A stretch of 64,000 nucleotides of DNA from Desulfurococcales archaeon (lineage in GTDB: Archaea; Thermoproteota; Thermoprotei_A; Sulfolobales; NBVN01), in contig WAKQ01000009.1 of assembly GCA_015523295.1 (NCBI GenBank), forward strand, positions 12,805-76,804. Direction: 5' to 3'. Under the pieces are notes generated by a model. The model saw only the letters and a program-made list of their open reading frames with translations, was not told the DNA's origin and ran no database searches. This document shows positions 19,994 to 60,599 of this stretch, piece by piece; position 1 is the first letter of the stretch, and the number at the start of each line of letters is the position of its first letter. Made by a program: the position numbers and the translations under genes.

Positions 19994-20001
19994 TCTTAGA
20001 G

Positions 20002-33524: not shown

Positions 33525-34649
33525 TTGAGGGCTGATTACATTACAACAAACATAGCTATTGCAGAGGGGGCGATGGCGGCAGGCCTAATGTTTTACGCTG
33601 GTTATCCTATAACTCCCGCATCTGATCTCTTCGAATATCTGGCGTCTGTACTCCCTTCCAGGAATGGGGTAGTAGCTCAGTTTGAAGATGAGATTGCTTC
33701 CATTAACGCCGTTATAGGGGCTTCCTGGGCTGGAGTTAAGGCAATGACAGCTACATCAGGACCCGGTTTCTCTCTCATGGTGGAGGGGCTGGGTCTTGCG
33801 ATAATTACTGAGGCTCCTCTTGTGGTTGTTGACATTATGAGGGCGGGTCCATCAACAGGTGTTCCAACTAAGGCCACTCAAAGTGATGTTTATCAGGTAC
33901 GTTTCTCATCTCATGGAATTTACTCTATCCCAGTATTAGTTCCGTGGTCAGCTCAAGAGGGTTTCGATCTAGCGGTAAAGGCGTTTAACATTGCTGAGAG
34001 GTTGAGAACCCCCGTAGTTCTCCTGTCAGATGCGGTGCTGGCCCATGCCTGGGAAAAAGTCAGTTTAAGAAGTAGTGAGGAAATTCAAGTAGTTAACAGA
34101 AAGAAACCTAAGAATCTAGAGGAAGGGATGTTTCCCTTCAAGCCCGAGAATGATCTGGTTCCACCCATGCCCTGCTTCGGAGAGGGTTTTGGAGTAAAGG
34201 TTGAATCATTATCTCATGATGAGAGAGGCTGGTATGCACCGGATAACGAGACATATAAGAAACTTGTTTGGAGGCTTGTGAAGAAAATTGAGAACAATAT
34301 GAGTCTAATTTGGGATAGTGAAAGATACTTCACCAATGATGCAGAATATGCGATTGTTGCATACGGTTCCGTGGCACGACCAGCTTACGCTGCAGTGAAG
34401 GAGTTCAGAAGGGAGGGGTATAAGTTCGGACTCTACCGCCTTAAGACCCTGTGGCCGTTCAACGATCGCGATGTAGCCAATTCTTTAAGGAAAATTAAGA
34501 AGGTGTTTGTGGTGGAAAATAATGAAGGGAAGATGTACAGGGAGATTGCTAGATCGGTTAAGTCAGCTGAAGTTATTTCTGTGCCACTCATAAACTTAGA
34601 GGTACCTCCCCCAGAAGAGATTGAGGAGGCTGTTAAGGAATGGCTTTAA
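33525..34649 (+). CDS. 2-oxoacid:ferredoxin oxidoreductase alpha subunit
   Basis: The pattern [10 protein letters not shown]...[33 protein letters not shown] is typical of OFOR alpha subunits. Confidence 0.9.
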
Positions 34650-35476
34650 CAAGGGTTATTGCTGAACACCCGCTTAGCAAGTACCTGGTTAATGAGAGAC
34701 TCCCTCATGCATGGTGTCCTGGATGCGGTTTAGGCATCACTTTAGGGGCAATCCTCAGAGCTGTTGACAGAAAGGTTAGAGAGGGGAAAATAGATATTAA
34801 GAAACTGGTTCTCGTTAGCGGCATCGGTTGCTCGGCGAGGGCTTCCTTCTACGTGAGATTTGATTCAGCTCATACTATACATGGTCGGGCAATCCCATTT
34901 GCAACCGGTGCTAAACTCGCTAACCCATCCCTAGAAGTAATTGTGTTTGGTGGAGACGGGGATATTGCAGGGATAGGAGGTAATCACCTCATACATGCGG
35001 CGAGAAGGAACATGGATCTCCTAGTCTTCATGGTATCTAATCTCGTCTACGCTATGACTGGTGGACAGGTAGCACCAACTACGCCAACAGGCCTTTTCAC
35101 AACGACTACCCCTTACGGCAATCCTGAAAGGCCGATTAACGTGGTTAAGCTAGTTGCGTCGCAGAACCCGAACTATGTGGCAAGGGCCTCAGCTACGCAT
35201 CCAGCGTTAATCGAGCAATATACTTATAGAGCATTGGGGATGGAGGGATTTAGATTCATTGAAGTCATATCGATGTGTCCAGAGGTCTTCGGCCGCCATA
35301 TAGGGTATAATGACCCCGTCTCCCTATACAAGGCCATAAAAAGCAAGACAAGGGTAAAGGCCAGGCCTTCCCTGGATGAGGCTGATTATGACTGGAATCA
35401 CGGCTGGGTGCTTGGAGAATTCATTATAAAGAACAATCCAGGATATCTGAGAACCACGGGGAGGTGGAGAGCTTGA
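34640..35476 (+). CDS. 2-oxoacid:ferredoxin oxidoreductase beta subunit (TPP-binding)
   Basis: WCPGCG..., GIGCS..., GGDGD motifs. Confidence 0.9.
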
Positions 35477-36009
35477 GGAAGGAATTTCTCGCTGCGGGAA
35501 GAGGGGGGCAAGGAATACTTATACTGGGGCATGTTCTGGGCCTTGCAGCAGCTAAATACACGGGCCTCTATGTTACTGGCACTGAATCCTATGATGCTGA
35601 GACAAGAGGTGGGGACTCTAGAGTCGATCTAATATTTACGGACAGTCAAGATGAGCTTGACTACTTTAAGGTGAGGAGCGCGGACATCGCCCTCTTCATG
35701 TACTCAGATCAACTGCTGAAGTATAGGAGGCTAGTGGGAAATGAAGCTATTGTATTCATTGATAGTTCATTTCATATACCTGAGTTAAGGAGCTCATGGC
35801 AGGTTTACAGGGTGCCCTACACGGACATGGCAGAAGAGAAACTGGGTACCCACGTTGTCGCCAATATGATCGCTTTAGGTCACATTATCAGGAAAACAGG
35901 GTTAATTGACCGAGAAGCAGTGATAAGTTCGATAAAGGAAGTTGTACGAAAACGGTGGGTTTCAGTAGATCTCAAAGCATTCGAGCTTGGTATGGAACTC
36001 GATCCTTAG
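35464..36009 (+). CDS. 2-oxoacid:ferredoxin oxidoreductase gamma subunit
   Basis: AGRGGQGIL pattern. 181 aa. Overlaps the beta subunit stop. Confidence 0.85.
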   Translation: MESLRKEFLAAGRGGQGILILGHVLGLAAAKYTGLYVTGTESYDAETRGGDSRVDLIFTDSQDELDYFKVRSADIALFMYSDQLLKYRRLVGNEAIVFIDSSFHIPELRSSWQVYRVPYTDMAEEKLGTHVVANMIALGHIIRKTGLIDREAVISSIKEVVRKRWVSVDLKAFELGMELDP

Positions 36010-36159
36010 AGAGTGCTCCGACTAGAGAACTGAAGGTTAGTAAAATAGTGGTCTATCAAATAATTCGTTTCATTTACTGGCAAGCTTATTATTTCTCTGA
36101 AAATATTTGTTATCGAAGGCTGTTAGAGAGGTCTTCAGTGAAACTCAGAGGTGATATGA

Positions 36160-36369
36160 ATGATATGGAGAAGTAATGGTTCCCCTAAATGTCCTCGTTG
36201 CGGAGGGAGACTAACATACTATGTCGAGACTGAAGGAGGTAACGGCATTAAGACAATAAGATACGTACTCAGATGTAAAGCTTGTGGATACAGGCAAGTG
36301 CTTCAAGAAGTAATGATTAGAAAGACATCAGAAGGTGTGATAATATCCTTGCCTAAGGCCAAAAATTAG
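36160..36369 (+). CDS. Small zinc-ribbon protein
   Basis: CPRCGG ... CKACG (two CxxC pairs) in 69 aa. A GAGGTGAT ribosome-binding site lies upstream. Confidence 0.55.
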   Translation: MIWRSNGSPKCPRCGGRLTYYVETEGGNGIKTIRYVLRCKACGYRQVLQEVMIRKTSEGVIISLPKAKN

Positions 36370-38352: not shown

Positions 38353-39615
38353 CTAGATCTTAAACTTAGTTGCTGATTCTGTCTCTGCTACTATTTTGCC
38401 TCTGCTTAGGACATACTTAGGCGGCTCGTGATGCCATATCACCTCATAAACGGACCTTCCTTCATGCACCAGCAGATCGGCTGGACACCCCTCCTTGATG
38501 CCGCAGAAACTGAGGTTCATGGCCTTCATAGCCCTCCAAGTAATCATGTCCATGAACTCATCCATGTCTTTGAGAGTCATTGACCAGGTAATGTGTGAGG
38601 CCAGGAATGCTACTTCAAGCATGTTGTTTCGCCCATAAGGGTAATAAGCGTCGGAGATGTCATCCTGCCCTAAAGCTACATTTAAGCCGAATTTAAGCAT
38701 CTCTTTGAATGGTAGATGGAGAGGTCCGGTGTGAGGATCCATTACGAATGACATACCTGCCTTCTTAGAAAGTCTCATGACTTTAAGTAGTGTGGGTTTT
38801 CCATAGGTTGATAGGGCTCTAGCGTGGCAAGCCGTAACCCTGTCTTTCCATCCCATTTTTATGGCTTCAGAGGCTAATATTTCTGTAGTCCTGAGGAAGG
38901 GATCGCCTGCATCGTCTGTAAGCATGGCTACATCTCTATCGAACTCTTTCGCAAGCGTTAACGCCTTTCGCACATGAGATAGGGCATCCTCTTCAGTGAG
39001 TTCAATCCAAGGAATCCCTCCAACTACATCTGCTCCGAGCTCCAGTGCCTTCCTAACGTAGTCTTCAGCACCTTCATCTCTGATGAGACCGTCTTGCGGG
39101 AATGCCACAACTTGGATGTTCATCACGTGCTTTAATTCGTCTCTAACCCTGAGCAAAGCCTTAATTCCTTCTAACCTGGCCTTAGTGTCGGTATCTACGA
39201 ATGCCCTTAAGTGCAGGGTGCCGTGCTTTAAAGCCTCTAAGGCAGCCTTCTTCGCATTCTCATAAATCCAGTCCTCACTATATTTCTCCTTAACCTTAGA
39301 TGCAAGCTCGATAGCGGCCATAGCACCCCCCATCCCGCTGGACTGATATTGCCTCACCGCTGCCTCTCCAAGCATGAGGAATGTGTAGACCTTACACATG
39401 TGAATGTGAGGGTTTGCGAAAGGCTCAGTCACTAGCCCGCCTTTCGCGTCAATCTCTATTATACCTTTAGACGTGATGCCTTCCGAAACCTTCCTGATCT
39501 CTCCACCTGAAATGCCTATATCATATACCCTGTCTGCGGGATGATATCTTAGCCTAGCGTTCCTAATGATGACATCGTATTCCTCAACCAATATGAAACA
39601 CCTATTAAAAATCAA
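38353..39615 (-). CDS. Amidohydrolase-superfamily enzyme, cytosine-deaminase/AtzC-like
   Basis: The metal motif FANPHIHMCK (HxH) resembles the CodA PHIHLD motif. 420 aa, with the typical later His/Asp pattern (ACHARAL, GQDDISD). Confidence 0.75.
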   Translation of the reverse strand: MIFNRCFILVEEYDVIIRNARLRYHPADRVYDIGISGGEIRKVSEGITSKGIIEIDAKGGLVTEPFANPHIHMCKVYTFLMLGEAAVRQYQSSGMGGAMAAIELASKVKEKYSEDWIYENAKKAALEALKHGTLHLRAFVDTDTKARLEGIKALLRVRDELKHVMNIQVVAFPQDGLIRDEGAEDYVRKALELGADVVGGIPWIELTEEDALSHVRKALTLAKEFDRDVAMLTDDAGDPFLRTTEILASEAIKMGWKDRVTACHARALSTYGKPTLLKVMRLSKKAGMSFVMDPHTGPLHLPFKEMLKFGLNVALGQDDISDAYYPYGRNNMLEVAFLASHITWSMTLKDMDEFMDMITWRAMKAMNLSFCGIKEGCPADLLVHEGRSVYEVIWHHEPPKYVLSRGKIVAETESATKFKI

Positions 39616-39653
39616 ATGAGAAGGTATATATGGTTTAAAACGTTCGAAAATGG

Positions 39654-39839
39654 CTACAAGATCTTCTTAAGGATGTCCTCCAAATCCTTTTCTAGTTCAG
39701 GCTTAGGCTGCCATATCACGTGGGCGGCGTTGACTCCCTGCTTTCTGAGTTCCTTGTAGAAGTACTCTAGGCCAACGTTTATTACCTTGACCTCCTCTTT
39801 GAACAGCCTCAGCACCTTGCTCACATCAGGTTCGGACAT
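39654..39839 (-). CDS. Small protein (61 aa) of the FdrA cluster; resembles the short N-terminal extension seen on some long DUF1116 proteins
   Basis: VINVGLEYFYKELRKQGVNAAHVIWQP pattern. It lies 6 nt downstream of the FdrA stop on the same strand. Confidence 0.45.
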   Translation of the reverse strand: MSEPDVSKVLRLFKEEVKVINVGLEYFYKELRKQGVNAAHVIWQPKPELEKDLEDILKKIL

Positions 39840-39845
39840 AACCTC

Positions 39846-41465
39846 TCACCTCCTACCAACTAAGTATTTTTCAAAGAAGTTCCGGGCGGTTCTTTCTGAA
39901 GAGTCTCCCTTAGCTATCATTCCAGCAACCAAGGCCATCAAAGCATTTGTTGGCAGGAGGATGACGCCAGCCTTTCTTAGCTTATTCTCCTGCTCTAAGG
40001 CATTCTGAGGGTCTCTCTCTGTACCCACCACGTGAGCTAAAATTGTCAGATGGCGGCCGCTGTCTGACGCTATTTCCTTCGCCTTCTTTATCGCGCTGAG
40101 GTGGGCCTCCGCCGGGTCTGGATGTGATCCGTAACCTAGCACGAAATCAAGCATGATTACAGCAGTTTCAGGGTCCTTAGCTTCCTGCACTATTCTCTGC
40201 AGTCTAATGGTTGGGTCTATCATTGGGTGGGCTCTTCCCGCAGTGAACTCTTCTTCACCTAAGTCAATAACACTGTGCTCCTTGCTTATCCAGGCGTTGG
40301 GGAGGGTGAAGTCCTTATTTAGCGGTGTGTTTGACCATACATCACCTAGGAATTCTTTGAAGATGACTTGAGATTCATAGAGTAGAGTGCCTCCGGTGAA
40401 GAGGCCTCTCACATATCTCTGACCTTCCCTCAGTTTGCTCAGCTCATCCTCAACGATCTTGGCAACCTTTTCTGGGGGAAGGGATATCCTCTCCAATGCC
40501 TTCTCATAAAGTGAATTACTGACGAACCTTATTGATTCGAGAGATGCAGCATGTAATGTGTTCGTCTGCACAAGCCTCCCTTTAAGCTCGACAGGAATGG
40601 AGAACTCCTGACCGCCTATGAAGCATGTGACATATTTCTTCCTCCCTTTATCCCTAATCAAGTTAACGATCTTTTCCTGCACGTCTGGAGAAGGAGGCTT
40701 AGACACTATTGTAATTACTTCAGTGTTTTCATCAGCCTCCAACGCCCTCATAGAGAATAACGTCATCATACCTCCAACTGGTGACTTCACATCACGTCCT
40801 CCTACGCCAATGCCTTGCGTGATCCCGGAACCCCCTCTCGTGATAAGCACGCTCGTTTCTTGGAGCCCTGTACCTGCTGCAGCGACAATACCTATAGGTC
40901 CCCTGTCAACCACATTGGCGAATGCCAGCGCAACCCCATTTATAATTGATGTGCCGGCTTCAGGTCCCATAACCAGTACTCCTTTTTCTAGGGCTGCTTT
41001 CTTAAGCTCTATCTCATCCTCTAAAGGTACATGATCGCTGAATAAGTGAATGTGTATCCCCCTATTTATGAACTCCATTACAACATCCTTCGCGTATTTT
41101 CCCGGGACGGACACTAGTGCAACATTTGCACCAGGTAACGCTTTCAACGCTGATTCAATACTGTAGTAGTAAGTCTCTCCTGATTCCGCAGGTCTTGTAA
41201 GCAGTTCCTCGATCTCTCTAATTATTCCGTGAATGTCTGCAGAGTCCTCAGCCTTAACAGCGATAATCATGTCATTCTCGCTAGCCCTCCTACCCTCTTC
41301 AGTAAGGAGTCCCTCCTTCTCAAGGAGCTCTTTATTAAGTTCCGTGCCCATTGCCAGGGCCGCATCGATGACTCCCTTGAGTTTCTTCACTTCTTCGCTA
41401 AGATGGAGGAGCTGTACAGAGTCCCTGAAGAAGTTAGTTTTAACAATGTTCTTCACCCTGGCCAT
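39846..41465 (-). CDS. fdrA: FdrA-family protein (succinyl-CoA-synthetase-alpha-like; AllF-type)
   Basis: About 540 aa. The N-terminus MARVKNIVKTNFFRDSVQLLHLS resembles E. coli FdrA (FQDSVSLM). CoA-binding/ligase-CoA Gly-rich segments are present. The ATG at 41465 is preferred over the track start at 41483. Confidence 0.75.
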   Translation of the reverse strand: MARVKNIVKTNFFRDSVQLLHLSEEVKKLKGVIDAALAMGTELNKELLEKEGLLTEEGRRASENDMIIAVKAEDSADIHGIIREIEELLTRPAESGETYYYSIESALKALPGANVALVSVPGKYAKDVVMEFINRGIHIHLFSDHVPLEDEIELKKAALEKGVLVMGPEAGTSIINGVALAFANVVDRGPIGIVAAAGTGLQETSVLITRGGSGITQGIGVGGRDVKSPVGGMMTLFSMRALEADENTEVITIVSKPPSPDVQEKIVNLIRDKGRKKYVTCFIGGQEFSIPVELKGRLVQTNTLHAASLESIRFVSNSLYEKALERISLPPEKVAKIVEDELSKLREGQRYVRGLFTGGTLLYESQVIFKEFLGDVWSNTPLNKDFTLPNAWISKEHSVIDLGEEEFTAGRAHPMIDPTIRLQRIVQEAKDPETAVIMLDFVLGYGSHPDPAEAHLSAIKKAKEIASDSGRHLTILAHVVGTERDPQNALEQENKLRKAGVILLPTNALMALVAGMIAKGDSSERTARNFFEKYLVGRR

Positions 41466-41558
41466 TTCCCATGCCTCACACAAGTTAAGATTTGCTAGAA
41501 TTCGTTATAAAAGATTTATGCTTTAAAAATAAATTTAATAAACGTGTTCTTCAAAGTG

Positions 41559-42476
41559 TCACTTCCTTTCTTCATCTGTGCATATGGCGGTAAGTCTGCA
41601 GAAGGCCGATTCCCCACCGACGAACTTAAATGGGAAGGCAGAGATTAGACACCTTCTGTTCAGGACCTTCCTTATTTCCCCGCCAGCATTTTCAACGTGG
41701 AGCACACCCTTCGGGAAGAGGTATGTGTGCATCAGCTGGAAGTTCTCAGGCCAGGGCATGACGTCCTGGATCTTCTTCCCATGCTTCTTCTCAAACTCCT
41801 CCACTATATCTGGACGTATTCTCCTGATTGGCGTGTTCAACGGATGATCCTGTGATGCAGCGTCTACCGCCGTCCACCTTATTTTATTCTTGACGAGCCA
41901 GTCAGCGAACTCTTTTATAGGTCCTGGATGCTTAAGCATGTACCTCACGGTGTTGGCTTCAGGCCTATAGTAAGCGTACCTGTCATAGCCTGTATGAATT
42001 ATGAGTATGTCATAAGGCTTGAGACCTAAGTTATACGACCTTATCTTCTCCTCTATTAAGTCGGATGTATATATATCTAGGTCACCTACATCCTCACTTA
42101 TATCAACTATAATCCCCTCACCTATCCAGTACTCAATAGGTATTGACGCGATGTCAAGGCCAGCTGAATCGAAGTGAAGAGGTCCATCCATATGTGTTCC
42201 TATATGAAGGGGTGTCTGAATGTACTGGGCTCCAACACCATGCTCGTATATTACTTTAATCCATTTGAACTCGAAGGGCGGATATGTCGGGAATGGTGGT
42301 GAGAGAGTGCTCAATGGCTGAGATAGGTCGTATACTTTAGCATTAGACCAGTCAACGACCTTGCTCCAGTCGTAGGTAGGCTTCTTTTTAAGGACTTCGG
42401 CAGTAAACTCCTCTAACACGTTGCCTGGACGCGGTTTCCAGTTCATCCATCTGTCAGAACTGAAGTATATTGACAT
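41559..42476 (-). CDS. Cyclase-family metal-dependent amidase (kynurenine formamidase/isatin hydrolase-like)
   Basis: Signature HIGTHMDGPLHF (HxGTHxDxPxH). Confidence 0.8.
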   Translation of the reverse strand: MSIYFSSDRWMNWKPRPGNVLEEFTAEVLKKKPTYDWSKVVDWSNAKVYDLSQPLSTLSPPFPTYPPFEFKWIKVIYEHGVGAQYIQTPLHIGTHMDGPLHFDSAGLDIASIPIEYWIGEGIIVDISEDVGDLDIYTSDLIEEKIRSYNLGLKPYDILIIHTGYDRYAYYRPEANTVRYMLKHPGPIKEFADWLVKNKIRWTAVDAASQDHPLNTPIRRIRPDIVEEFEKKHGKKIQDVMPWPENFQLMHTYLFPKGVLHVENAGGEIRKVLNRRCLISAFPFKFVGGESAFCRLTAICTDEERK

Positions 42477-42545
42477 TATTGAAACCTCAATGTAATTACT
42501 ACGGCAAATGTTTTAAACGTTTTTTTGGCAGAGGTTATCATGACA

Positions 42546-43523
42546 TCAATTAATGCATGGATGAATGATGTTTTGGAAACTATCTTCTATCCTTTCATGT
42601 ATTCCATCTACTGCTTTTTGAGTGAGTAAACCTTTCAAAGTCAGCAAGCCAGCTATGAATCCCGCAAAGAGGTATATTCCTGAGTCATGCCCGTAATGGA
42701 GGAGGTCCATTAAGCTGTGGATTGAGCGGTTGATATCGTTTTTCAGGAGTGTGTGGAACCCCATTAGTAGCGAATAGGGTAGCTTACCATCTAGTGATTC
42801 TATAAGAAGAAATGCAGAGGTCTCAGTTGTTCTTCCGAATATCTTAAACGGATCGTATACGATTAACTTGTGATGTGTGATTGACTGAGAGATGTAATTT
42901 ATTGAGCCTATGAATCCCGAAAGGAAATCATCGTAGGATGGAGTAGCTCCAGAACCCAGTCCAATGAGGGAATAGGCGGTTTCAGGTAGGTGAGCTGTTT
43001 TGCTAAATAGGTTAATCAAATTTCTCACCTCTCTTATAGTTTCCATCATTTTGGTGAGGATGAAACTATCTATGAACTTCTTCAGGAGTGAGGCAAGCGT
43101 ACAGAATTCTCTGGTTTCCTTTCTTATTATATCCCACCCTACTTTAGTGAGGATGTCAGCACGAACGCGCTCTAATGGTATGTCGGGAAGTAAATAAGCG
43201 TTATTGAGTTTAATAATCATATCGCACGACAATAGCTTGAGAGTCACCTTTCCATTGCCTAACCTTATTTTAATGACTTCTTTAGCACGTGCGCATCTTT
43301 CGAAGCTCTTGAGCGTTTGAAGGAAGGTTAACGGGTCTAAAGTGATGGCTATTGGACTTGTTATGTTTTTGGCTGTAACTGAAAGCATTTGAAGGTTGTT
43401 TAATTTTAGGTTGATCGTATGTGGGTAAACGGAAATAATTTCGGTTCTGAAAAAGCCCGGTCTTTTATTGAGGCGTTGCCAGGCAACCTTACCTAACTTG
43501 GAAGCTTCTAATACGCACTTCAT
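42546..43523 (-). CDS. DUF2877-family protein (YlbF/AllH-like)
   Basis: The motif GLGSGATPSYDDFLSG matches the G-x-G-x-TP-x-x-DD core I associate with DUF2877. The start overlaps the DUF1116 stop. Confidence 0.6.
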   Translation of the reverse strand: MKCVLEASKLGKVAWQRLNKRPGFFRTEIISVYPHTINLKLNNLQMLSVTAKNITSPIAITLDPLTFLQTLKSFERCARAKEVIKIRLGNGKVTLKLLSCDMIIKLNNAYLLPDIPLERVRADILTKVGWDIIRKETREFCTLASLLKKFIDSFILTKMMETIREVRNLINLFSKTAHLPETAYSLIGLGSGATPSYDDFLSGFIGSINYISQSITHHKLIVYDPFKIFGRTTETSAFLLIESLDGKLPYSLLMGFHTLLKNDINRSIHSLMDLLHYGHDSGIYLFAGFIAGLLTLKGLLTQKAVDGIHERIEDSFQNIIHPCIN

Positions 43524-44797
43524 ATTCCATATTTCTCAGCAAACTTTCTTAATGCATTCTTGAAGGGTTCCATGGGGAAGGTAACTATTCCAGCACCGAC
43601 TTGCCCTATGCCTGGTTCCTTGTGTGAGATCCCGGTATTTATGGTCGGGGTTATGCCTGTAGCAACAACTTTTCGTATGTCTACACCTGTTGGTGTCCCT
43701 TGGAAGGAGAGGTAAGGGATGGTGAAGTATTTGTGACGTGTGTATGTTATCTGGTACATTCTTTTGGTGTTCTCTACAGCATATTCGGCTGTTCCACCCA
43801 CATAGCTTACTATTGCTGGGGCTGCTGCCATGGCGAAGCCTCCAAAGCCCGCAGTCTCAGTTATTGATGAGTCCCCTATATCCGGGTTAGCGTCTTCCTC
43901 TTTAAATCCTGGGAAGAGGACGCCTTTAGGTATTGGTGATGGTGCAGTAAACCATTCGTTGCCTAACCCACTTACCCATATTCCCATATCAGTTCCGTTT
44001 CTCGTCATTACAGTGACAATGGTGGAGTATTTGATGTTGTGCGCAGCTAATGTCATAACCTTAGCTGACGCCATCCCCATGTTCAGAGGGAATATTATGT
44101 TGTTGGCTATGAATCTATACGCTTCTAACACATCTTTCCTATCTATTCCTGTGTTGAACATGTAAGGCGCAATCTCCTTTAGGAGGAGTGCGTTCGTAGC
44201 AACGTATCTATTATGACATTCGTCACCCATATGAAGGGCTTGGGCTATCAGGTTCTTGAAGTTGAGTCCCTTCCCCTGATCCTTCTTATATTCATCTATC
44301 GTAGCCTTCAAGACGGGATAGAGGACCTTATCCATCCATTTAAGTCGCTTGATGACCTCCTCTCCATATGCCCCATATCTTAACACCTTCCCGAGTCCTT
44401 CATTCATGTTTGAATATGCCTTGTTTCCATACTTAGGATCTTCAAATATGAAGACGGGCATTGAAGGGGAAATAACACCTGCCATCGGGCCTACGACGTT
44501 ATGAGGGTGTGTGGGTTCGAACACCACCTCGCCCTTCGCCAGAAGCTTTTCAGCTTCCTCTGGGGTGCTCGCCCAACCTTCGTAAATTACAGCGCCAATG
44601 AGCGCACCCCTCAGGGGTCCGGAAGCGCGTTCCCAAGTAATTGGTGGGCCTGCATGAAGAAGCATCCTGTCCTTAAGACCGGTTATAACCTTCCCCGCGA
44701 GATCCATGCCCACCCAATGCGGTTCCGATTCCATCAACCTCTCAACAGCTTGAGTGTTGGCCTTCTCAATCTCTTCTTTTATAGAACTTGAAGTCAT
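43520..44797 (-). CDS. DUF1116-family protein (YlbE/AllG-like)
   Basis: Full-length similarity to remembered YlbE features: LLHAGPPI.W, GEV.F.P.H..N.VGPMAGV, NEGLGKVLRYGAYG, DSSITETAGFGG, TGI.P.INTGI.HKE.G.GQ.GAG. Confidence 0.75.
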   Translation of the reverse strand: MTSSSIKEEIEKANTQAVERLMESEPHWVGMDLAGKVITGLKDRMLLHAGPPITWERASGPLRGALIGAVIYEGWASTPEEAEKLLAKGEVVFEPTHPHNVVGPMAGVISPSMPVFIFEDPKYGNKAYSNMNEGLGKVLRYGAYGEEVIKRLKWMDKVLYPVLKATIDEYKKDQGKGLNFKNLIAQALHMGDECHNRYVATNALLLKEIAPYMFNTGIDRKDVLEAYRFIANNIIFPLNMGMASAKVMTLAAHNIKYSTIVTVMTRNGTDMGIWVSGLGNEWFTAPSPIPKGVLFPGFKEEDANPDIGDSSITETAGFGGFAMAAAPAIVSYVGGTAEYAVENTKRMYQITYTRHKYFTIPYLSFQGTPTGVDIRKVVATGITPTINTGISHKEPGIGQVGAGIVTFPMEPFKNALRKFAEKYGI

Positions 44798-44969
44798 GTG
44801 TTAGTACCCACTAAAGAATACCGTGCTATAAAGCTTTAAGTATTTCGACTTAAGAGGATTTACATAACTATCCTTTCAAGTATTTATTTAGCAAACTTGC
44901 ACCTTATTCATGAGTCACATTTACTCTTACGAATCAATAATTTTTTAATCATAGGCGGGATATTATTTA

Positions 44970-45734
44970 TTGTGTGGAACCATGTACGAAATTCCTGTAA
45001 GGACAACATTAAAAGACGGTAAATACTCAGTGTATGCACAATGGGTTGAAGCGTTCCTCAGGCCTCCGAGATCGCCGTTACTGGATAGGCCTTTCGAACC
45101 TAAGTTGGTGGAGTTGAGGAATGGAAGGAAGATGGTTATCAGGATGGCGACTGAGAAAGATCTGCCACTGATATTAGATGTCCTTAGAGACATGATCAAC
45201 TTGCAGATTGATGTCGACTTCTTCGACTTAGTGGCTGCTAGGACATACGCAGAAATTCTCGCAATATTGAGAAAGAGAATTAAGGATGAGTGGGTGATGA
45301 TAGGTGTGTTGGATGACGGTACCCTGGCAGGTCAGGTTAATGCAAGGTTATGGAATGATAAAATAGCGATAAGCCTTCATACAATAGTGTTCAAGAGGAG
45401 GCTAGGTGCTGGACTACCTATGTATCTCGCTAAGATGGAGTACGCCTTTGAAACACTGGGCGTAGAGGAATGGTGGCCAACCTTTGAATCCTACTACGGC
45501 TTCAGAGAGTTCGTGCTCAAACTAGGAACCCATATGAAGCCTTACCCGGAATACCAGCATGAGCTAGGGGGTGCTACAGTATTCTATAACACGAGGGCAG
45601 ACTGGGACAACTACATTAAGCCAACTTGGAAGGAACTCCTTGGCACGCGTCCAGTACCCGAGGAACTCTTAAAGATCGCAGAGAACCCCAAGAAGCCTGA
45701 CGTCAAAGAGGAATTCGGTGATTTCCTTAAATAA
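44970..45734 (+). CDS. Hypothetical protein with a possible GNAT-like fold, divergent from the DUF1116 gene
   Basis: The pattern MVIRMATEKDLPLILDVL...GTLAGQVNARL... is reminiscent of N-acetyltransferase N-terminal strands. Weak call. Confidence 0.4.
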   Translation: MCGTMYEIPVRTTLKDGKYSVYAQWVEAFLRPPRSPLLDRPFEPKLVELRNGRKMVIRMATEKDLPLILDVLRDMINLQIDVDFFDLVAARTYAEILAILRKRIKDEWVMIGVLDDGTLAGQVNARLWNDKIAISLHTIVFKRRLGAGLPMYLAKMEYAFETLGVEEWWPTFESYYGFREFVLKLGTHMKPYPEYQHELGGATVFYNTRADWDNYIKPTWKELLGTRPVPEELLKIAENPKKPDVKEEFGDFLK

Positions 45735-45781
45735 TATGAAGGCCATATGAATTTTTCGGCCTTAAGCCCCTTCACCCGGTT

Positions 45782-46441
45782 TTAGTAAGAATATGGAACT
45801 TCGATCACCTCAATATTATTCTTCATAACCCTGAACCTCACGTTCTTCTTCCCCTTGATTCTGTCTAACTTCTCAAGCTCTTCCATTAGCTTAATCATTC
45901 TTTTCCTTAACCGGTATGTCTTCCTATAATACATGACACCTGTAAAGACTACAGTAGCGAATATGATTGAATCCAGTATCAAGTCATAAAGTATGATTCC
46001 TAGATAAATAGAGGCAGCCCAAATCAAGGTATAGAGCGAGACATCAATGATAGTGCTTCTCCTCACACTTCTCTTCAGTCTTCCTAACTCAACCTCAATG
46101 TCTGTCTTCTCACCTCTTCTTAGGGATAGGATATCGATGGAATGCATGCTGAGGAACTTCTTAATAAAGAGGAATACTTCCAAGCTTGGAAAAACCTTTA
46201 TAGTGGGCACCACGACCGCATCAACTATTATCTCCCCCCTGCTGATAGAGGTTAGGAGCTCGCTTAATCGAGGATAAGTATTTCTTCGGGCTACTGTATC
46301 TTCCCAATCGGCAAAAACCTTAAGAACTTTAAAGCCGTGTTTCTTGCTAACTTCTTCAGTGAGTTGTCTTAGATCCTCTCCTCTCTGTACTACGGCATAA
46401 ACCACGGCGCTCTTGGCAGGGTCGCTCTTCGCATCTGACAC
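45782..46441 (-). CDS. Hypothetical membrane protein: degenerate serine-recombinase(resolvase)-like N-domain, two TM helices and a basic C-tail
   Basis: AVVYAVVQRGED...GFKVLKVFADWEDTVARRNTYPRLSELL...VDAVVVPTIKVF...LSMHSIDILSL follows the resolvase catalytic-domain pattern, but the Ser and Arg positions are substituted. Confidence 0.4.
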   Translation of the reverse strand: MSDAKSDPAKSAVVYAVVQRGEDLRQLTEEVSKKHGFKVLKVFADWEDTVARRNTYPRLSELLTSISRGEIIVDAVVVPTIKVFPSLEVFLFIKKFLSMHSIDILSLRRGEKTDIEVELGRLKRSVRRSTIIDVSLYTLIWAASIYLGIILYDLILDSIIFATVVFTGVMYYRKTYRLRKRMIKLMEELEKLDRIKGKKNVRFRVMKNNIEVIEVPYSY

Positions 46442-46583
46442 ACTTGCTTCTCCTATGATGTGTTATATTGATGTTCTTTAAAGTTCTTTCATGCTTTGCG
46501 TGTACAATATATTTGAGTGTTTCTCATGGATTATAATATAATTATGGGGCTCTTTATGGTTTAACACTGTTAAAAATGAAACC

Positions 46584-48266
46584 ATGAAAGTGGATGACTT
46601 AGAGAAATTTTTATTAATCACTGGTTTTAATACTTTAATGACAAGTGATACTATGACTTCTGAAGCACCAGAGGAAAAAAACCCTCAAGAAACTCAATCC
46701 CAGAAGCTTCCTCATAAAAAGCTGAGGAACTTTGAGGAGTGGCGGCGTGAAGCAGCTAAGGGACCTAAGAAGTGGATGATTTATGGGACCGAGGATAAGC
46801 CAGAGTCAATAATCGAGGCTGCGTTTCTAGGGCTTCAGCAGTACTTCATAATGTTTGGAGCTACGGTAGCAGTCCCCATTCTAGTGGCTGGGTGGATCGC
46901 ACAATACTATCAGATCCCGGACAATACTATGAGGTTACTGATCATAGACCTCATCACCATCCAGTTCCTAGGTGCTGGAATCACAACATTACTGCAGACA
47001 TGGCATAAGACGGGAAGCGGTCTACCTATAGTGCAGGGCTCATCATTCTCGTTCCTGGGAAGCCTGTTCGCCATAATAAGCTCTACAAGTATCATCGCTC
47101 AGAGCGAGGGATACCCTGATGTTAAGGCATTCATAGCTGCAGTGCCTGATCCTTGGGTTAGAGCCTCTATAGTCCTCCGTTACACAACTGGGGCCATCAT
47201 AGCGGCTTCGTTCTTCGAGATAATTCTAGGTTACTCCATGTTGATGGGTAAGATTAAGCGCTGGATAACCCCGGTATCTATCGGTCCAACTATCATAATC
47301 ATCGGCCTGTCTCTGTTCGGTGCACCAAGCGCCATGCATACTGCCGAAGGATGGTGGGAGGCCCTTCTAGTGGTGTTCTTCATAATATTATTCAACCAGT
47401 TCATAGGACGTAAATACATTAAGGTGCAGATGTTCTCAGTATTGCTAAGTATAGTGACTGTATGGGTCATAGCAGCAATATTAACAGCTGGTGGATTACT
47501 CAAGGGAGCGACTGCAGTAAACTTCTGGCCAATAGAAGAGGTGGTTAAGACTAACTACTACTTCAGACCCCCATGGATATTCCCATGGGGTCCGCCTAGG
47601 TTCGTGGCTGCCTTTGGGCTAGGGATGATTGCTGCCTACCTAGCAAGCATGGTTGAATCCATAGGCGACTATCACTCAGTGGCAAGAATGTCAGAGGCAC
47701 CACCGCCCACTGAAGACATGATCAGTAAGGGACTGGGTGCTGAAGGCCTAGGATGCTTGATAGGAGGGATATTTGGTGCGGCAGGCGGTTACACTAGCTA
47801 CTCTGAGAATATAGGTGCTATAGGCCTCACTAGAGTGGCAAGCAGGTATGTCTTCCAACTTGGAGGTGCCCTCATCCTCTTCCTAGGAGGAATGATCACT
47901 GCCTGGGGCGCATTCATGGCCACCATGCCAAACCCCATCATCGGTGGCCTCTACCTCTCAGTATTCGGGCTGATAGCCGCCATAGGTGTTTCAGTAGTCT
48001 CAATGGCTAATATGAAGTCATCGAGGAACCTATACATAATAGGTCTTGCTATGTTTGCCGGTCTGGCCGTTCCGCCGATGGCGCAGTCGCAGGCGATGAA
48101 CAACTGGGTAGCCAGTCTCGGGCCGTGGGCTTGGTTGGGTCAGATCCTTCAGGTATTCCTTGAGACTGGCATGGCTGATGCAGCAATTGTAGGCATTATA
48201 CTCGACAACCTACTTCCAGGTACTCCAGAAGAAAGAGGCATGCTACACCCTGACTGGGCATCATAA
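46584..48266 (+). CDS. NCS2/NAT (SLC23-like) nucleobase:cation symporter
   Basis: NAT signature motif ENIGAIGLTR at 47805-47834. Polytopic, 560 aa. The true start may be an internal Met. Confidence 0.8.
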   Translation: MKVDDLEKFLLITGFNTLMTSDTMTSEAPEEKNPQETQSQKLPHKKLRNFEEWRREAAKGPKKWMIYGTEDKPESIIEAAFLGLQQYFIMFGATVAVPILVAGWIAQYYQIPDNTMRLLIIDLITIQFLGAGITTLLQTWHKTGSGLPIVQGSSFSFLGSLFAIISSTSIIAQSEGYPDVKAFIAAVPDPWVRASIVLRYTTGAIIAASFFEIILGYSMLMGKIKRWITPVSIGPTIIIIGLSLFGAPSAMHTAEGWWEALLVVFFIILFNQFIGRKYIKVQMFSVLLSIVTVWVIAAILTAGGLLKGATAVNFWPIEEVVKTNYYFRPPWIFPWGPPRFVAAFGLGMIAAYLASMVESIGDYHSVARMSEAPPPTEDMISKGLGAEGLGCLIGGIFGAAGGYTSYSENIGAIGLTRVASRYVFQLGGALILFLGGMITAWGAFMATMPNPIIGGLYLSVFGLIAAIGVSVVSMANMKSSRNLYIIGLAMFAGLAVPPMAQSQAMNNWVASLGPWAWLGQILQVFLETGMADAAIVGIILDNLLPGTPEERGMLHPDWAS

Positions 48267-48384
48267 TGTTGTAAAAATAATAAAAATATTTTTAAGTAAT
48301 ACTTTACTCATTGTTCAGCTCAATTTAGTAAATTTTGATAAGATTCATTTTAAAAAGTTTAACTGCAGAGCACCCTAGCTCACG

Positions 48385-49002
48385 TTAATTCTCCATGGAG
48401 TTTAAGCGCTCAATAAAATCCAACAGGACCTCAATCACCTCTCTATGCATGAATCTCTGCAGATCTTTAATTCTAGAGTCGCTGAAAGGATATACCACTC
48501 TCTTCTCATTCACATTGACTATATGCGTCACCTTAGTGAAGGATGTCCCTAAAAGATCCCAAGGCATTACCGGCCTTAAATTCCAGGAGTCATACATCTT
48601 CTTCCTAATGTACCTAAGGGCATCTTCTGTGACTCCATTCTCGGTGATCAATACTATATTGTAGAAGTAGAACGTAGCTGGCTTTTTCGGCTTTCTTTTC
48701 TCGAATAATTTATTGATGAGTTTAGCGCTCTCCTGCGTTATGAAGTCTGCACGCTTGATAAGCATGAATATAGCTCTATTCTTGACGCCTACCTTGCTGA
48801 GTTTCTTAAATGCCTCGAAGGTATCTGGGCCGATATTGGTTATTTCAAACCCCCTATTTCTTAACTCCTCTAGGAGGAGGCCTAAAGCAGTCGAAGACCT
48901 CGTCTTCAGCACCCAATAAGTTATTAAGTTATACAGTAGATTAATTAAACCCGTAAATGTTGGTAGAATGCCGTATCTAGGAATCTGTTCAATTACAGTC
49001 AT
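48385..49002 (-). CDS. Hypothetical protein (205 aa), orphan, flanked by AT-rich spacers
   Basis: An ORF only. One N-terminal hydrophobic segment. No motif recognised. Confidence 0.4.
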   Translation of the reverse strand: MTVIEQIPRYGILPTFTGLINLLYNLITYWVLKTRSSTALGLLLEELRNRGFEITNIGPDTFEAFKKLSKVGVKNRAIFMLIKRADFITQESAKLINKLFEKRKPKKPATFYFYNIVLITENGVTEDALRYIRKKMYDSWNLRPVMPWDLLGTSFTKVTHIVNVNEKRVVYPFSDSRIKDLQRFMHREVIEVLLDFIERLNSMEN

Positions 49003-49121
49003 TAAATTTTAGGAGAAAACTTGCTTCTTAATGTTTTTCACGAGACTTTTTTACTATACGGGTAAGATCTTTAAAGCTAAACTTTTATATTGGTAACTGC
49101 TCTTAATATAAATGTGATATC

Positions 49122-51530
49122 TTGCCCGACAGTTATAAATATGTAGGTAGTAAAGTCCAGCGAATTGATAAGGACAAAGTTTTAGGTGGTGCTGAGTTCG
49201 CCTACGATTTTGAGTTACCTGGTATGCTGTGGGCTAAGCTGGTAGGCAGTCCATACCCCCACGCAAAAATAGTATCTGTGGATTATAGTGATGCCTTGAA
49301 GGTTCCTGGGGTTGTGGCAGTATTCACGGGGGAGGACTTTCCCTTCAAAGTAGGTCTCTATGCTGCAGATAGAGACGTTCTAGCTAGGAAGAAGGCCCTC
49401 TACTATGGTCATCCTGTAGCTGCTGTTATAGCGGAATCTCTTGATGCGGCTGAGGAAGCAGCTACGAAGATACAGGTTGAGTATGAGCCTCTCCCCTACT
49501 CCCTTAAGGTCGAGGACTCGCTTAAGCCGGATGCACCGATAATACATGAGGAGATGCACACCTACAAACACGCGGTCTTCATTTACCCCAAGCCAGGCAC
49601 GAATATAGCCCATCAGACGAAAGTGAGGAAAGGTAATGTTGAGGAGGCGTTCTCCAAAGCGGACGTCGTGGTTGAAAAGGTCTATAGGGAGCCACTCCTA
49701 TCACACTATTACTTGGAGCCATGGACAGGCATTGCAAGGGTGAGAAGCGATGGAACTGTAGAGGTTTGGTCCTCTCATCAATCACCTTTCGCTGTGAGGG
49801 AGCTTCTTTCAAAATCCCTAAGCATACCCATGAATAAGTTAGTGGTTCACCACCTTTACACTGGCGGGGGCTTCGGAGGTAAGGCAGGGCTGCTCCTAGA
49901 GCATTTGCCGATACTCTTCTCTAAAAAGCTCGGTGGGAGGCCCGTAAAACTCAGGTTAACTGCAAGGGAGAACTTCTTCTATATGGCTCAAAGAGCGGGC
50001 TACCTGATAAAGATGAAGACCGGTGCAACCAAGGACGGGAAGCTGATAGCACACTGGGGAGAGTATTACCTTGACGCAGGCGCATACGCTGATTACACCG
50101 TCAACATGGCAAGGGCCATAGGTTTAACGGCTACAGGCCCCTACGAAATACCTAATATACATGTGGACTCCTTCGCGGTTTACACGAATAAAGTACCTAC
50201 GACAGCATTCAGAGGATTCACTATGCAGGAGCTTCACTACGCGTTCGAGTCTCAGATAGATGAGCTCGCCCATAAGTTGGGGATGGATCCAGCTGAGTTC
50301 AGATTGCTTAACGTCTTCAAACCAGGGATCTCTAGAACAGCTATAGGTGAGAGACTTAAGGAAGATGCAGGAGACCCGGCCACCCCTATCAAGGAAGTGG
50401 TTAAGATGCTGTCTGAGGATGATGAGAAGCCAAAGAAGCCATGGATTGTTAGAGGTAAGGGTATCGCTGCCTTCTGGAAGGGACCCTTCCAGCCCTCTAG
50501 CGCGGCTTCATCAGCTATCGTTAAGGTCAATGACGACGGCACTGTAGACGTATTGGTAGGTACTGGTGCCATGGGACAGGGCACTATTACGGCACTAACT
50601 CAGATAGTTGCTGAGGAGCTGGGCATACCTCCCGAGATAATAAGAGTATCACCTCATAGGAGCACGGATATGGTTCCATACACGTGGCAGACCGTGGGTT
50701 CAAGAGGGCTGTTCTCGGAGGGTATGTCAGTAATCATGGCTTGCGAAGACCTAATAGAGCAGGTTAGGGAGGTGGCTTCAATAGTCTTTGACGTGAATAA
50801 GAACATGATCGAATACTCTGAAGGGAAGGCATGCGTGAAGGGCGAGCCATGGCATTGTATAACCTTAAAGGAGGCGGCGCTAGGTTATATGAATCCTAAA
50901 GGCGTCACGGTTGGCGGTCCCTTAATTGGCAGAGGCTACTACGTCCCTCCAAGAAACGTGTTGACGGACCCTGAGACGGGACAGGTTCTTGAAGAGGGCC
51001 ACTTAGCTCCCTTCTACACCTTCGGCGCTGGAGGTGTTGAAATAGAGATAAACCTCCTGACCGGCGAGATAAAGGTGCTCAAGGCTGTGTCAGTGTACGA
51101 TACCCCTGCAGTCAACCCCGGCCTAGCTGAAGGGCAGGTCGTGGGAGGAACTGTGATGGGTTTAAACATAGCCATGAGGGAGCGCCTTATCTACGATGAG
51201 GAAGGGGAATACAAGGGTGTCTTTCCCGAAGGAATGCTGTTAAATCCGTGCCTCACAGGTTACCTTCTTGCTAGAGCCAGTGACATACCTGAGAAAATAG
51301 AGTTCAAGTTCTTAGGTGTGAAGCAGAAGGACGCTCCCTTCGGCGCTAAGGGTATCGCAGAGCTTACGATGATTCCATGGCCTGCAGCGCTCGCCAACGC
51401 TATCTACAATGCCATAGGTGTAAGGATAACTGAACTCCCGATAACTCCAGACAAACTCATTGAGGAGATCAGGAAGCAGAAGCCTGAGCTACTGGAGCAA
51501 GCTGAGAAGTACTTGGAGGTGAATCTCTGA
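49122..51530 (+). CDS. Molybdenum hydroxylase large (molybdopterin-binding) subunit, xanthine dehydrogenase/aldehyde oxidoreductase family
   Basis: N-terminus VGSKVQRIDKDKVLGGAEFAYD, TAFRGFT, and C-terminal GAKGIAE catalytic-Glu motif. The CO-dehydrogenase AYRCSFR loop is absent. Confidence 0.85.
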   Translation: MPDSYKYVGSKVQRIDKDKVLGGAEFAYDFELPGMLWAKLVGSPYPHAKIVSVDYSDALKVPGVVAVFTGEDFPFKVGLYAADRDVLARKKALYYGHPVAAVIAESLDAAEEAATKIQVEYEPLPYSLKVEDSLKPDAPIIHEEMHTYKHAVFIYPKPGTNIAHQTKVRKGNVEEAFSKADVVVEKVYREPLLSHYYLEPWTGIARVRSDGTVEVWSSHQSPFAVRELLSKSLSIPMNKLVVHHLYTGGGFGGKAGLLLEHLPILFSKKLGGRPVKLRLTARENFFYMAQRAGYLIKMKTGATKDGKLIAHWGEYYLDAGAYADYTVNMARAIGLTATGPYEIPNIHVDSFAVYTNKVPTTAFRGFTMQELHYAFESQIDELAHKLGMDPAEFRLLNVFKPGISRTAIGERLKEDAGDPATPIKEVVKMLSEDDEKPKKPWIVRGKGIAAFWKGPFQPSSAASSAIVKVNDDGTVDVLVGTGAMGQGTITALTQIVAEELGIPPEIIRVSPHRSTDMVPYTWQTVGSRGLFSEGMSVIMACEDLIEQVREVASIVFDVNKNMIEYSEGKACVKGEPWHCITLKEAALGYMNPKGVTVGGPLIGRGYYVPPRNVLTDPETGQVLEEGHLAPFYTFGAGGVEIEINLLTGEIKVLKAVSVYDTPAVNPGLAEGQVVGGTVMGLNIAMRERLIYDEEGEYKGVFPEGMLLNPCLTGYLLARASDIPEKIEFKFLGVKQKDAPFGAKGIAELTMIPWPAALANAIYNAIGVRITELPITPDKLIEEIRKQKPELLEQAEKYLEVNL

Positions 51531-51540
51531 GGTGATCCCC

Positions 51541-52476: not shown

Positions 52477-52477
52477 G

Positions 52478-52960: not shown

Positions 52961-53094
52961 GGATCCTTAGTCAAATTTCTTTTTTATTATGTAATGTTAT
53001 TAAATAAAAATCTTATTGAATAACTACTAGCAGTTTGCAGTATATTCAGATTATCTGCGGCGATATCTACATATCCCTCCTTCATATCTTTAGG

Positions 53095-56926: not shown

Positions 56927-56996
56927 TTTCCTCCATAGATGGACGAATATGTATATTTATATATCTTCAGATAATTACCTGGTTAGGTGGTGAGAT

Positions 56997-60593: not shown

Positions 60594-60599
60594 GGGTGA

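Follow-up and report, generated by a model that had tools for sequence, protein, structure and literature searches.

What does an AllFGH-type enzyme act on when it stands outside an allantoin pathway? In Escherichia coli, AllFGH catalyses the reversible phosphorolysis of an N-acylurea, oxalurate + inorganic phosphate ↔ carbamoyl phosphate + oxamate (PMC11326118). The question is raised here by a 64-kb stretch of DNA from a Desulfurococcales archaeon (contig WAKQ01000009.1), the whole of which we analysed and call the window; window coordinates refer to this full length. A first-pass annotation had described six co-directional minus-strand genes that combine the three AllFGH families with two amide-bond hydrolases, and had read them as a route in which an N-heterocycle is opened and its carbamoyl group transferred phosphorolytically. 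Comparative genomics agrees with this in general, but the reading was too narrow: the six genes are the core of a larger conserved cluster (38353-52960) in which, very probably, a molybdenum (Mo) hydroxylase and a ring amidase together make an N-acylurea that the triad then cleaves phosphorolytically.

All six open reading frames (ORFs) were found where the first-pass annotation had put them, and profiles place each in a family. Read along the minus strand, they encode a DUF1116/AllG-type subunit (425 amino acids, aa; 43520-44797; Pfam PF06545, E = 6e-88), a DUF2877/AllH-type subunit (325 aa; 42546-43523; PF11392, E = 1e-15), a cyclase-family PF04199 metal-dependent amidase (305 aa; 41559-42476; E = 5e-31), an FdrA/AllF-type subunit resembling the α chain of succinyl-coenzyme A (CoA) synthetase (545 or 539 aa; 39846-41483 or 39846-41465; NCBIfam NF004760), the free-standing linker module of the triad (61 aa; 39654-39839; FdrA model positions 502-554) and an amidohydrolase of the CodA/AtzC group (420 aa; 38353-39615; Amidohydro_3 with an HxH motif, by Pfam and NCBIfam). 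The genes are tightly spaced: the AllG stop and the AllH start overlap by 4 nt, and the remaining gaps are 69, 93, 6 and 38 nt. No carbamate kinase, allantoinase or ureidoglycolate enzyme was detected by Pfam scans of the large ORFs of the window, and tblastn of the window with YahI, YbcF and AllA-E gave no match below E = 0.025; for AA_kinase/carbamate kinase homologues in particular, neither Pfam nor tblastn (E ≥ 0.05) found a candidate in the 64 kb. The claim that these enzymes are missing from the window, and with it that the triad lies outside an allantoin pathway, is thereby borne out.

Profile hidden Markov models (HMMs) assign the three triad proteins to FdrA, DUF1116 and DUF2877. The AllG protein matches the DUF1116 structure of an uncharacterised protein (PDB entry 3clq, E = 3e-119) and is about equally close to the two E. 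coli paralogues (46% identity to YlbE and 45% to YahG); it is devoid of the N-terminal module present in most bacterial homologues, and an exact-sequence look-up returned no record of it. In a neighbour-joining tree of AllG it falls in an archaeal clade, apart from the E. coli paralogues. Cluster types are not cleanly separated in this tree, and the substrate class therefore cannot be read from AllG phylogeny alone. The FdrA protein passes the NF004760 model (446 bits, cut-off 433), contains CoA_binding and Ligase_CoA domains, and matches the structure of E. coli FdrA (PDB entry 3dmy, E = 1e-75) with conservation of the GRxHPMIDP motif. Its identity is 42% to YahF and 37% to E. coli FdrA/AllF, the C-terminal module of which it lacks. 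For the DUF2877 protein, the Pfam match covers only the C-terminal domain (residues 186-293) and a PDB sequence search gave no match.

The cyclase-family protein (108 bits to PF04199, cut-off 23.1) carries the sequence HIGTHMDGPLH, an instance of the HxGTHxDxPxH metal motif. Among 42 triad-linked homologues, which are 39-90% identical to the window protein, about 45 positions are invariant, including His91, Gly93, Thr94, His95, Asp97 and His101. Only 34 clusters among 1.8 billion representatives match at E ≤ 1e-30, so this is a discrete subfamily, and the window protein falls far short of the arylformamidase equivalog TIGR03035 (48.7 bits, cut-off 223).

Is this arrangement more than a local accident? 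By scanning one genome per species we collected 80 loci around AllG homologues, from archaea and from a wide range of bacterial phyla; the six-frame ORFs of these loci were compared with the window and E. coli proteins, and all of the neighbours were clustered. AllG homologues with 64-84% identity are abundant in thermophilic archaea; the closest relative, a metagenome-assembled genome (MAG) of an uncultured Desulfurococcaceae (locus L001), has an AllG 83% identical to that of the window. The gene set also occurs in Synergistota, Bacillota, Caldiserica, Elusimicrobia, Verrucomicrobiota, Chloroflexota and others, and it recurs over two domains and at least ten phyla; the cultured carriers include Acetomicrobium hydrogeniformans (L086; ACJX03000001, region 609-631 kb) and Clostridium rhizosphaerae (L050). 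The whole set is conserved in L086 and in two archaeal contigs, the vent contig L088 and L092. The arrangement is thus far beyond chance, its content being kept in dozens of genomes, and the supposition that the gene set, including the cyclase insertion, is an archaeal peculiarity has to be abandoned.

The commonest partner of the triad is the cyclase-family protein (46/80 loci), a linkage that the first-pass annotation had rightly singled out, followed by the large subunit of a Mo-hydroxylase (33) and carbamate kinase (21). A GNAT-fold protein adjoins the triad in 15 loci, both bacterial and archaeal, an NCS2 permease in 11-13, an amidase-signature amidase in 11 and a thiolase-like protein with DUF35 in ten. 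Less frequent are a ring-opening amidohydrolase of the AtzD/TrzD family and XdhC (six each), a CN-hydrolase and a PucR regulator (five each), and CoA-transferase III, carboxyltransferase, OAD_beta and the CodA-like amidohydrolase (four each). A typical bacterial order is (GNAT-thiolase-DUF35)-AllH-AllF-[module]AllG-cyclase-XdhM-XdhS-XdhL-permease. In Fisher tests on the 44 loci of at least 15 kb, which ignore shared ancestry, the cyclase co-occurs with the Mo-hydroxylase (p = 0.005), is never found together with the AtzD-family gene (0/6, p = 0.004) and is anticorrelated with an adjacent carbamate kinase (p = 0.006). Carbamate kinase adjoins the triad in the archaeal relatives L002, L007 and L020, and the clusters of the Xdh/cyclase type that have it include L002, L007, L019 and L022.

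The boundary at 44797 set by the first-pass annotation cuts off functionally linked genes. Directly beyond it, divergent from AllG, lies a gene for a 254-aa protein without a Pfam family (44970-45734, plus strand). Its AlphaFold2 model (mean predicted local distance difference test score 90.8) retrieves GNAT acyltransferases from the PDB with Foldseek (E of about 4e-6); a PDB sequence search gave no match, and the GNAT fold is therefore assigned by structure prediction only. It is followed on the plus strand by an NCS2/NAT nucleobase:cation symporter (46584-48266; Pfam Xan_ur_permease, E = 1e-66) and by a three-subunit Mo-hydroxylase of the xanthine-oxidase family, identified by its Pfam domains (49122-52960), with a large subunit (49122-51530), a flavin adenine dinucleotide (FAD) subunit (51532-52476) and a 2Fe-2S subunit (52454-52960), as in the Mo/FAD/2Fe-2S architecture of xanthine dehydrogenase. 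The large subunit scores below all of the NCBIfam equivalog cut-offs for XdhA, PucD and XdhB (best 425 bits, against 780), and a close relative was not found in the PDB. Cluster-linked large subunits from bacteria and archaea are 40-49% identical to that of the window, compared with 29% for E. coli XdhA. It is these neighbours, the NCS2 permease, the Mo-hydroxylase and the GNAT-fold gene, that give an indication of the substrate class.

Several independent clues from gene context point to pyrimidines, with barbiturate as an intermediate. The signature of the window permease is ENIG, as at Glu290 of UraA, whereas XanQ and UacT have QN; we take this position (ENxG versus QNxG) to read out the substrate class in the NAT family. 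ENxG is found in the window permease and in the permeases of other Xdh/cyclase clusters, and QNIG in clusters with carbamate kinase and cyanuric acid hydrolase. The last gene of the L050 cluster encodes a permease that has 58% identity to E. coli UraA and scores above the cut-off of the uracil-permease equivalog (639 bits, against 477). Between XdhLMS and FdrA, the archaeal MAG L006 has a canonical cytosine deaminase (463 bits, cut-off 438) and an NCS1 permease. Moreover, in L075 and L078 an AtzD-family gene takes the place of the cyclase, directly upstream of AllH (Bar-AllH-AllF-AllG ... XdhMSL-GNAT-thiolase), and it is closer to barbiturase (5hwe, 526 bits) than to cyanuric acid hydrolases (318 bits). 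Barbiturase orthologues occur in the sister clusters L070, L075 and L078 only, and no AtzD-family match was found in the window. We propose from this exchange that the cyclase-family protein is a ring-opening amidase standing in for barbiturase. The product of barbiturase is 3-oxo-3-ureidopropanoate (PMC3758960). This compound, ureidomalonate, is the next higher homologue of oxalurate, one CH2 longer. Finally, relatives including L001 carry downstream an amidase-signature or CN-hydrolase gene, CoA-transferase III, carboxyltransferase and OAD_beta, which would fit a conversion of malonamate to malonate, malonyl-CoA and acetyl-CoA.

From the family memberships, the gene set common to two domains, the patterns of co-occurrence and exclusion and the active-site states, all of which are observed, we infer the substrates and products of the following route, every one of them. 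Uracil or thymine would enter through the NCS2 permease and be oxidized at C6 by the Mo-hydroxylase to barbiturate or 5-methylbarbiturate. The cyclase-family amidase would open the ring to give ureidomalonate, an N-acylurea, whose carbamoyl group the FdrA/DUF1116/DUF2877 proteins with the separate 61-aa module would transfer to phosphate, yielding carbamoyl phosphate and malonamate. The carbamoyl phosphate could then be used by carbamate kinase to form adenosine triphosphate (ATP) or enter biosynthesis, while malonamate would be deamidated and, in relatives, processed by a CoA transferase and a (methyl)malonyl-CoA decarboxylase. For this pyrimidine/barbiturate version, a phosphorolytic variant of oxidative pyrimidine catabolism and the reading with the best support, we judge the chances to be evenly balanced.

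A number of observations weigh against the pyrimidine version. Over its whole sequence the window permease is marginally closer to urate/xanthine permeases (25% to UacT, 24% to UraA), and it scores 189 bits with the pbuX model compared with 59 bits with the UraA model; the best sub-threshold NCBIfam match of the Mo large subunit is XdhA. The exchange of barbiturase for the cyclase is seen in two or three loci only, and the Fisher tests on the 44 loci take no account of phylogenetic non-independence. The PucR family, named for purine catabolism, supplies regulators in the bacterial clusters. An adjacent carbamate kinase is rare in clusters of the Xdh/cyclase type (4/28 large loci), and the window encodes neither a carbamate kinase nor a malonamidase-type amidase, a CoA transferase or a malonyl-CoA decarboxylase. 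The route also leaves the variant amidohydrolase, the GNAT-fold protein and the thiolase/DUF35 pair unexplained.

Some of these points would suit a triad that is a genuine oxamate carbamoyltransferase, acting on oxalurate from a purine (xanthine/urate) or from a five-membered ring of the hydantoin type that is oxidized to parabanate and opened by an isatin-hydrolase-like cyclase. Oxalurate is the only substrate assayed for the AllFGH family, and a 1965 reference, cited in PMC3364942, has the enzyme of a Streptococcus induced by parabanic acid. The purine-type best matches of the permease and the Mo subunit over their whole sequences and the PucR regulators also agree with oxalurate, as does CoA-transferase III, whose family includes oxalate/formyl-CoA transferases. 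We nevertheless consider oxalurate unlikely as the substrate: allantoin and ureidoglycolate genes were not found in the window, AllG is equidistant from YlbE and YahG and lies in a separate clade, the cyclase is replaced in equivalent clusters by barbiturase and not by a five-ring amidase, orthologues of UraA and CodA occur in equivalent clusters, and the decarboxylase genes that accompany the clusters belong to the (methyl)malonyl-CoA type, not to oxalyl-CoA decarboxylase. An improbable alternative of another kind is that the heterocycle is an s-triazine, with ammelide or cyanuric acid leading to biuret or carboxybiuret, or some other base; the AtzC-like protein would then deaminate and the triad would cleave a carbamoyl-urea. 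The amidohydrolase is indeed as close to AtzC as to CodA, allFGHK adjoins biuret and triuret genes in nitrifiers (PMC12625717), and in L056, L071 and L020 the triad and carbamate kinase accompany true cyanuric acid hydrolase orthologues (488 bits to 6bum, against 316; NF052395 555 bits, cut-off 360). These clusters, however, have no Mo-hydroxylase, cyclase or GNAT gene, have QN-type permeases and look like a sister system. Moreover, fully oxidized triazines need no hydroxylase, and the window amidohydrolase is devoid of a histidine conserved in both AtzC and CodA.

We may also wonder whether the triad makes carbamoyl phosphate at all. CoA chemistry through FdrA, which has the CoA_binding and Ligase_CoA domains, could instead transfer the malonyl group of an acylurea to CoA with release of urea, or the triad could be an ADP-forming acyl-CoA synthetase. 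The rarity of an adjacent carbamate kinase in Xdh/cyclase-type clusters and the thiolase/DUF35, GNAT-fold, CoA transferase and acyl-CoA decarboxylase genes that cluster with the triad would agree with this. On the other hand, purified E. coli AllFGH needs only carbamoyl phosphate and oxamate (PMC11326118), some Xdh/cyclase clusters do contain carbamate kinase (the four loci given above), and neither urease nor urea carboxylase was seen in the families that recur next to the triad, which together make CoA chemistry unlikely. That the triad and the hydrolases belong to unrelated pathways and are adjacent by accident could be argued from two amidohydrolase orthologues that lie outside any triad cluster and from a TTTAAA box in each intergenic gap. 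Yet the same gene set recurs in the two domains and the phyla named above, with its order rearranged and its content co-conserved, so that a fortuitous adjacency is extremely improbable.

These TTTAAA-type boxes, possible archaeal TATA elements, lie at 39616-39653, 41466-41558 and 42477-42545. Since each gap has its own TATA-like box, separate transcription of the genes is possible, and the six-gene run may have internal promoters rather than form one strict operon. A common operator motif in the promoters of the triad operon, permease and hydroxylase was also sought; the candidate AACTTGCWYC (two matches, 0.59 expected) was equalled in eight of 100 shuffles and was rejected as not significant.

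The amidohydrolase departs from its best-known relatives in the active site. It had been described as CodA/AtzC-like, and the family resemblance stands: its best NCBIfam models are cytosine deaminases, all below cut-off (251 bits, against 438), it is equidistant from AtzC (1.6e-51) and CodA (1.5e-50) in a PDB search, and at 31% identity to CodA it keeps the HxH motif, Gln156, His246, Asp313 and Asp314. CodA has the metal ligands His61, His63, His214 and Asp313 and the catalytic Glu217; the third of these histidines and the glutamate are missing. In the motif MLTDDAGD, the strand-5 metal ligand His214 of CodA is replaced by leucine and the catalytic Glu217 by aspartate, and in the alignment to AtzC (5akq) MLTDD stands opposite YHIHD, so that the strand-5 histidine is absent here too. 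The substitutions are found in all 120 of the closest homologues (55-91% identity), archaeal and bacterial. A canonical cytosine deaminase is ruled out by these replacements. We also rejected an orthologue of YahJ, which is 24% identical over 232 aa and keeps the histidine and the glutamate. Judged by these residues, the protein belongs to a distinct subfamily, neither canonical cytosine deaminase nor AtzC. Its gene is part of the triad cluster in the window, L011, L086, L088 and L092, but solitary in L090 and L091; it is a sporadic member among the 80 loci and is absent from the cluster of the closest relative, L001. Its linkage to the triad cluster is frequent, not obligatory. In the pyrimidine route this Leu/Asp variant may be either a feeder deaminase or an amidase acting on the amide product of the triad, malonamate; the latter is possible because neither amidase-signature nor CN-hydrolase genes are present in the archaeal clusters to which it belongs.

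The 61-aa ORF had been taken for a detached piece of a longer DUF1116 protein. BLASTP aligns it with residues 509-554 of E. coli FdrA and also with residues 5-38 of YahG, in the DUF1116 N-terminal extension, and its profile match is to the last 53 positions of the FdrA model. We built an HMM from the module, ran it over the 80 loci and counted its placement in 74: in 52 it is joined to the DUF1116 protein at the N-terminus, in 14 it stands free and in 5-6 it is joined to FdrA at the C-terminus. Because the module is mostly fused to DUF1116, the view of a detached DUF1116 piece holds; by the same sequence matches, it is just as much the piece borne by the AllF C-terminus in E. coli. It is best described, from these placements, as a mobile module of the triad, predicted here to be a fourth polypeptide. 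The free module directly follows FdrA in the whole archaeal clade, in Caldiserica and in some other bacteria; the split is thus not an archaeal difference in subunit composition, as had been suggested. In the window, the ORF is in frame with FdrA, from which a single TGA plus two codons separate it, and a Shine-Dalgarno-like GGAGGTGA, conserved at this position, overlaps the FdrA stop codon. In other loci the junction varies: in L001 the two genes are out of frame, 5 nt apart, and in several others they overlap by 4 nt. The recurrent split in 14 loci, the differing junctions and the conserved GGAGGTGA at the stop indicate that the ORF is a genuine separate gene, and we rejected a frameshift, a sequencing error and a TGA read-through or selenocysteine product on these grounds.

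Two further observations concern the core genes. DUF2877/AllH is hypervariable, with 22-31% identity in all pairwise comparisons, including those with L001 and L088, and even between genomes whose AllG, FdrA and cyclase proteins are 72-90% identical. By blastn, the AllH gene of the window (42546-43523) has no similarity to those of L001 (11292-12266) and L088 (5927-6886), while both flanks align, at 69-78% DNA identity in the case of L001. In L088, two blastn pieces of the window cyclase gene, one of them inverted, lie between AllH and FdrA (6943-7985), and the contig also has an intact cyclase upstream of AllG; the pieces look like a remnant of an ancestral G-H-cyclase-F order after duplication.

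The surroundings of the cluster include other genes of interest. An adenosine monophosphate (AMP) phosphorylase is encoded at 10347-11852 on the plus strand (TIGR03327, 579 bits, cut-off 535); AMP phosphorylase catalyses the first step of the archaeal nucleotide-monophosphate/RuBisCO pathway, in which the base is released, and a type III RuBisCO lies 3 kb from the cluster in the related contig L088. At 18515-23680 (plus strand), a Bmp/PnrA-type binding protein, a double ATP-binding cassette (ABC) ATPase and two permeases form a nucleoside-type ABC importer. The AMP phosphorylase and this importer could be a source of free bases, which supports the pyrimidine version. The importer resembles the bmpA-nupABC that is reported to adjoin allFGHK in nitrifier MAGs. 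Interleaved with the GNAT, permease and hydroxylase genes are two minus-strand ORFs without a family match, of 219 aa (45782-46441) and 205 aa (48385-49002), which are conserved only in L001 (32% and 46% identity, respectively); the C-terminal half of the 219-aa protein is hydrophobic. Beyond the hydroxylase, 53035-55130 (plus strand) encodes a 326-aa protein without a Pfam match, GNAT-like by eye, and an enolase-superfamily enzyme of the mandelate racemase/muconate-lactonizing type. The same pair is inserted between cyclase and FdrA in L001 (14853-16870) and may be an N-acylamino-acid racemase-type module or a further member of the cluster. Just upstream of the cluster region (33525-36369, plus strand) are genes for the α, β and γ subunits of a 2-oxoacid:ferredoxin oxidoreductase, after which come two small ORFs, and at 56195-61823 (plus strand) an ABC ATPase, a 1198-aa NPCBM_assoc/CARDB protein and a MacB/FtsX-type permease form an unrelated surface/export module. 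Finally, in Tissierella pigra and [Clostridium] ultunense (L056 and L071, 500-12200) a sister cluster has the order PucR - cyanuric acid hydrolase orthologue - canonical CodA/AtzC-like amidohydrolase - QN-type NCS2 permease - AllH-AllF-AllG - carbamate kinase, which hints that in cultured Bacillota another subfamily of the triad acts on a triazine or biuret-type substrate.

In sum, the cluster is a genuine, conserved and uncharacterised feature. Our literature search, which covered few subscription journals, found no paper describing the cluster. The first-pass annotation had held that the triad has not been characterised in any archaeon; a metagenomic survey had already noted allFGHK in comammox bacteria and in a Nitrososphaerales MAG, where it was read as oxalurate degradation (PMC12625717), so that the archaeal genes had been noted before, although never assayed. 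If the proposal is true, the AllFGH family would gain a second physiological substrate and a general definition, acylurea phosphorolysis, and the long-known, genetically incomplete oxidative pyrimidine pathway would gain candidate genes for uracil/thymine dehydrogenase, a candidate non-homologous barbiturase with a cyclase fold and an ATP-yielding alternative to ureidomalonase. In another enzymatic form, a pathway called rare (PMC3758960) would prove common among anaerobes and archaea, and the bases freed by the AMP-phosphorylase/RuBisCO nucleotide pathway would have an archaeal fate. The occurrence of the cluster in the cultured A. hydrogeniformans and C. rhizosphaerae makes the proposal directly testable.

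How, then, does the cluster compare with known systems? With E. coli AllFGH (FdrA-YlbE-YlbF) and AllK (Kim & Kim, 2024; PMC11326118), it has in common the three families, the GRxHPMIDP motif and the linker module. The window AllG and FdrA, however, are only 46% and 37% identical to their counterparts; allK and the allantoin genes allB, allC, allD and allE are missing; the module is a separate gene and not the C-terminus of AllF; and the order is G-H-cyclase-F-module, with a Mo-hydroxylase, a cyclase-family amidase, a GNAT-fold protein and an NCS2 permease as partners. The triad belongs structurally to the AllFGH family, but its context does not mark it as an orthologue of the E. coli oxalurate enzyme: there is no allK or other all gene, and it is not closer to YlbE/AllF than to YahG/YahF. 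In composition, the E. coli cluster that comes nearest is yahE-yahF-yahG-yahI-yahJ, which is uncharacterised and likewise contains a CodA-like amidohydrolase beside its triad. The window FdrA shares more identity with YahF than with AllF, and YahG has the module fused, as do most relatives. Unlike the window protein, YahJ keeps the histidine and the glutamate; a carbamate kinase is present in the yah cluster, whereas a cyclase and a Mo-hydroxylase are absent from it.

Among known pathways, the one that comes closest is the oxidative degradation of pyrimidines in Rhodococcus and Corynebacterium by uracil dehydrogenase, barbiturase and ureidomalonase (Soong et al., 2001/2002, as cited in PMC3758960). 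The proposed intermediates, barbiturate and ureidomalonate, are the same, and the window cluster has a Mo-hydroxylase, for comparison with which no sequence of a characterised uracil dehydrogenase was found. The cluster has no barbiturase, whose part we propose to be taken by a non-homologous amidase of the cyclase family; in the last step, phosphorolysis to carbamoyl phosphate and malonamate would replace hydrolysis to urea and malonate; and the hosts of the window-type cluster are anaerobes and archaea. The cyclase shares the HxGTHxDxPxH motif and the family fold assignment with kynurenine formamidase and isatin hydrolase, but it is about 90 aa longer than kynurenine formamidase and only its N-terminal 90 residues align to KynB structures. 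A similar energetic logic is found in the YgeW/YqeA step of the reductive uric acid pathway, in which a ureido group is likewise phosphorolysed to carbamoyl phosphate and energy is conserved, and for which other organisms have hydrolytic variants of the YgeW step (PMC12507026). YgeW has a classical transcarbamylase fold unrelated to the triad, and its substrate and pathway differ. Four pyrimidine routes are known (PMC12507026), none of them like the one proposed here. We would tentatively venture, although we hold it to be somewhat doubtful, that FdrA/DUF1116/DUF2877 is a general N-acylurea phosphorylase with subfamilies for oxalurate (E. coli), carboxybiuret/biuret (the clusters with cyanuric acid hydrolase and carbamate kinase) and ureidomalonate (the window cluster), the last forming a fifth, oxidative-phosphorolytic pyrimidine route widespread in anaerobic bacteria and thermophilic archaea.

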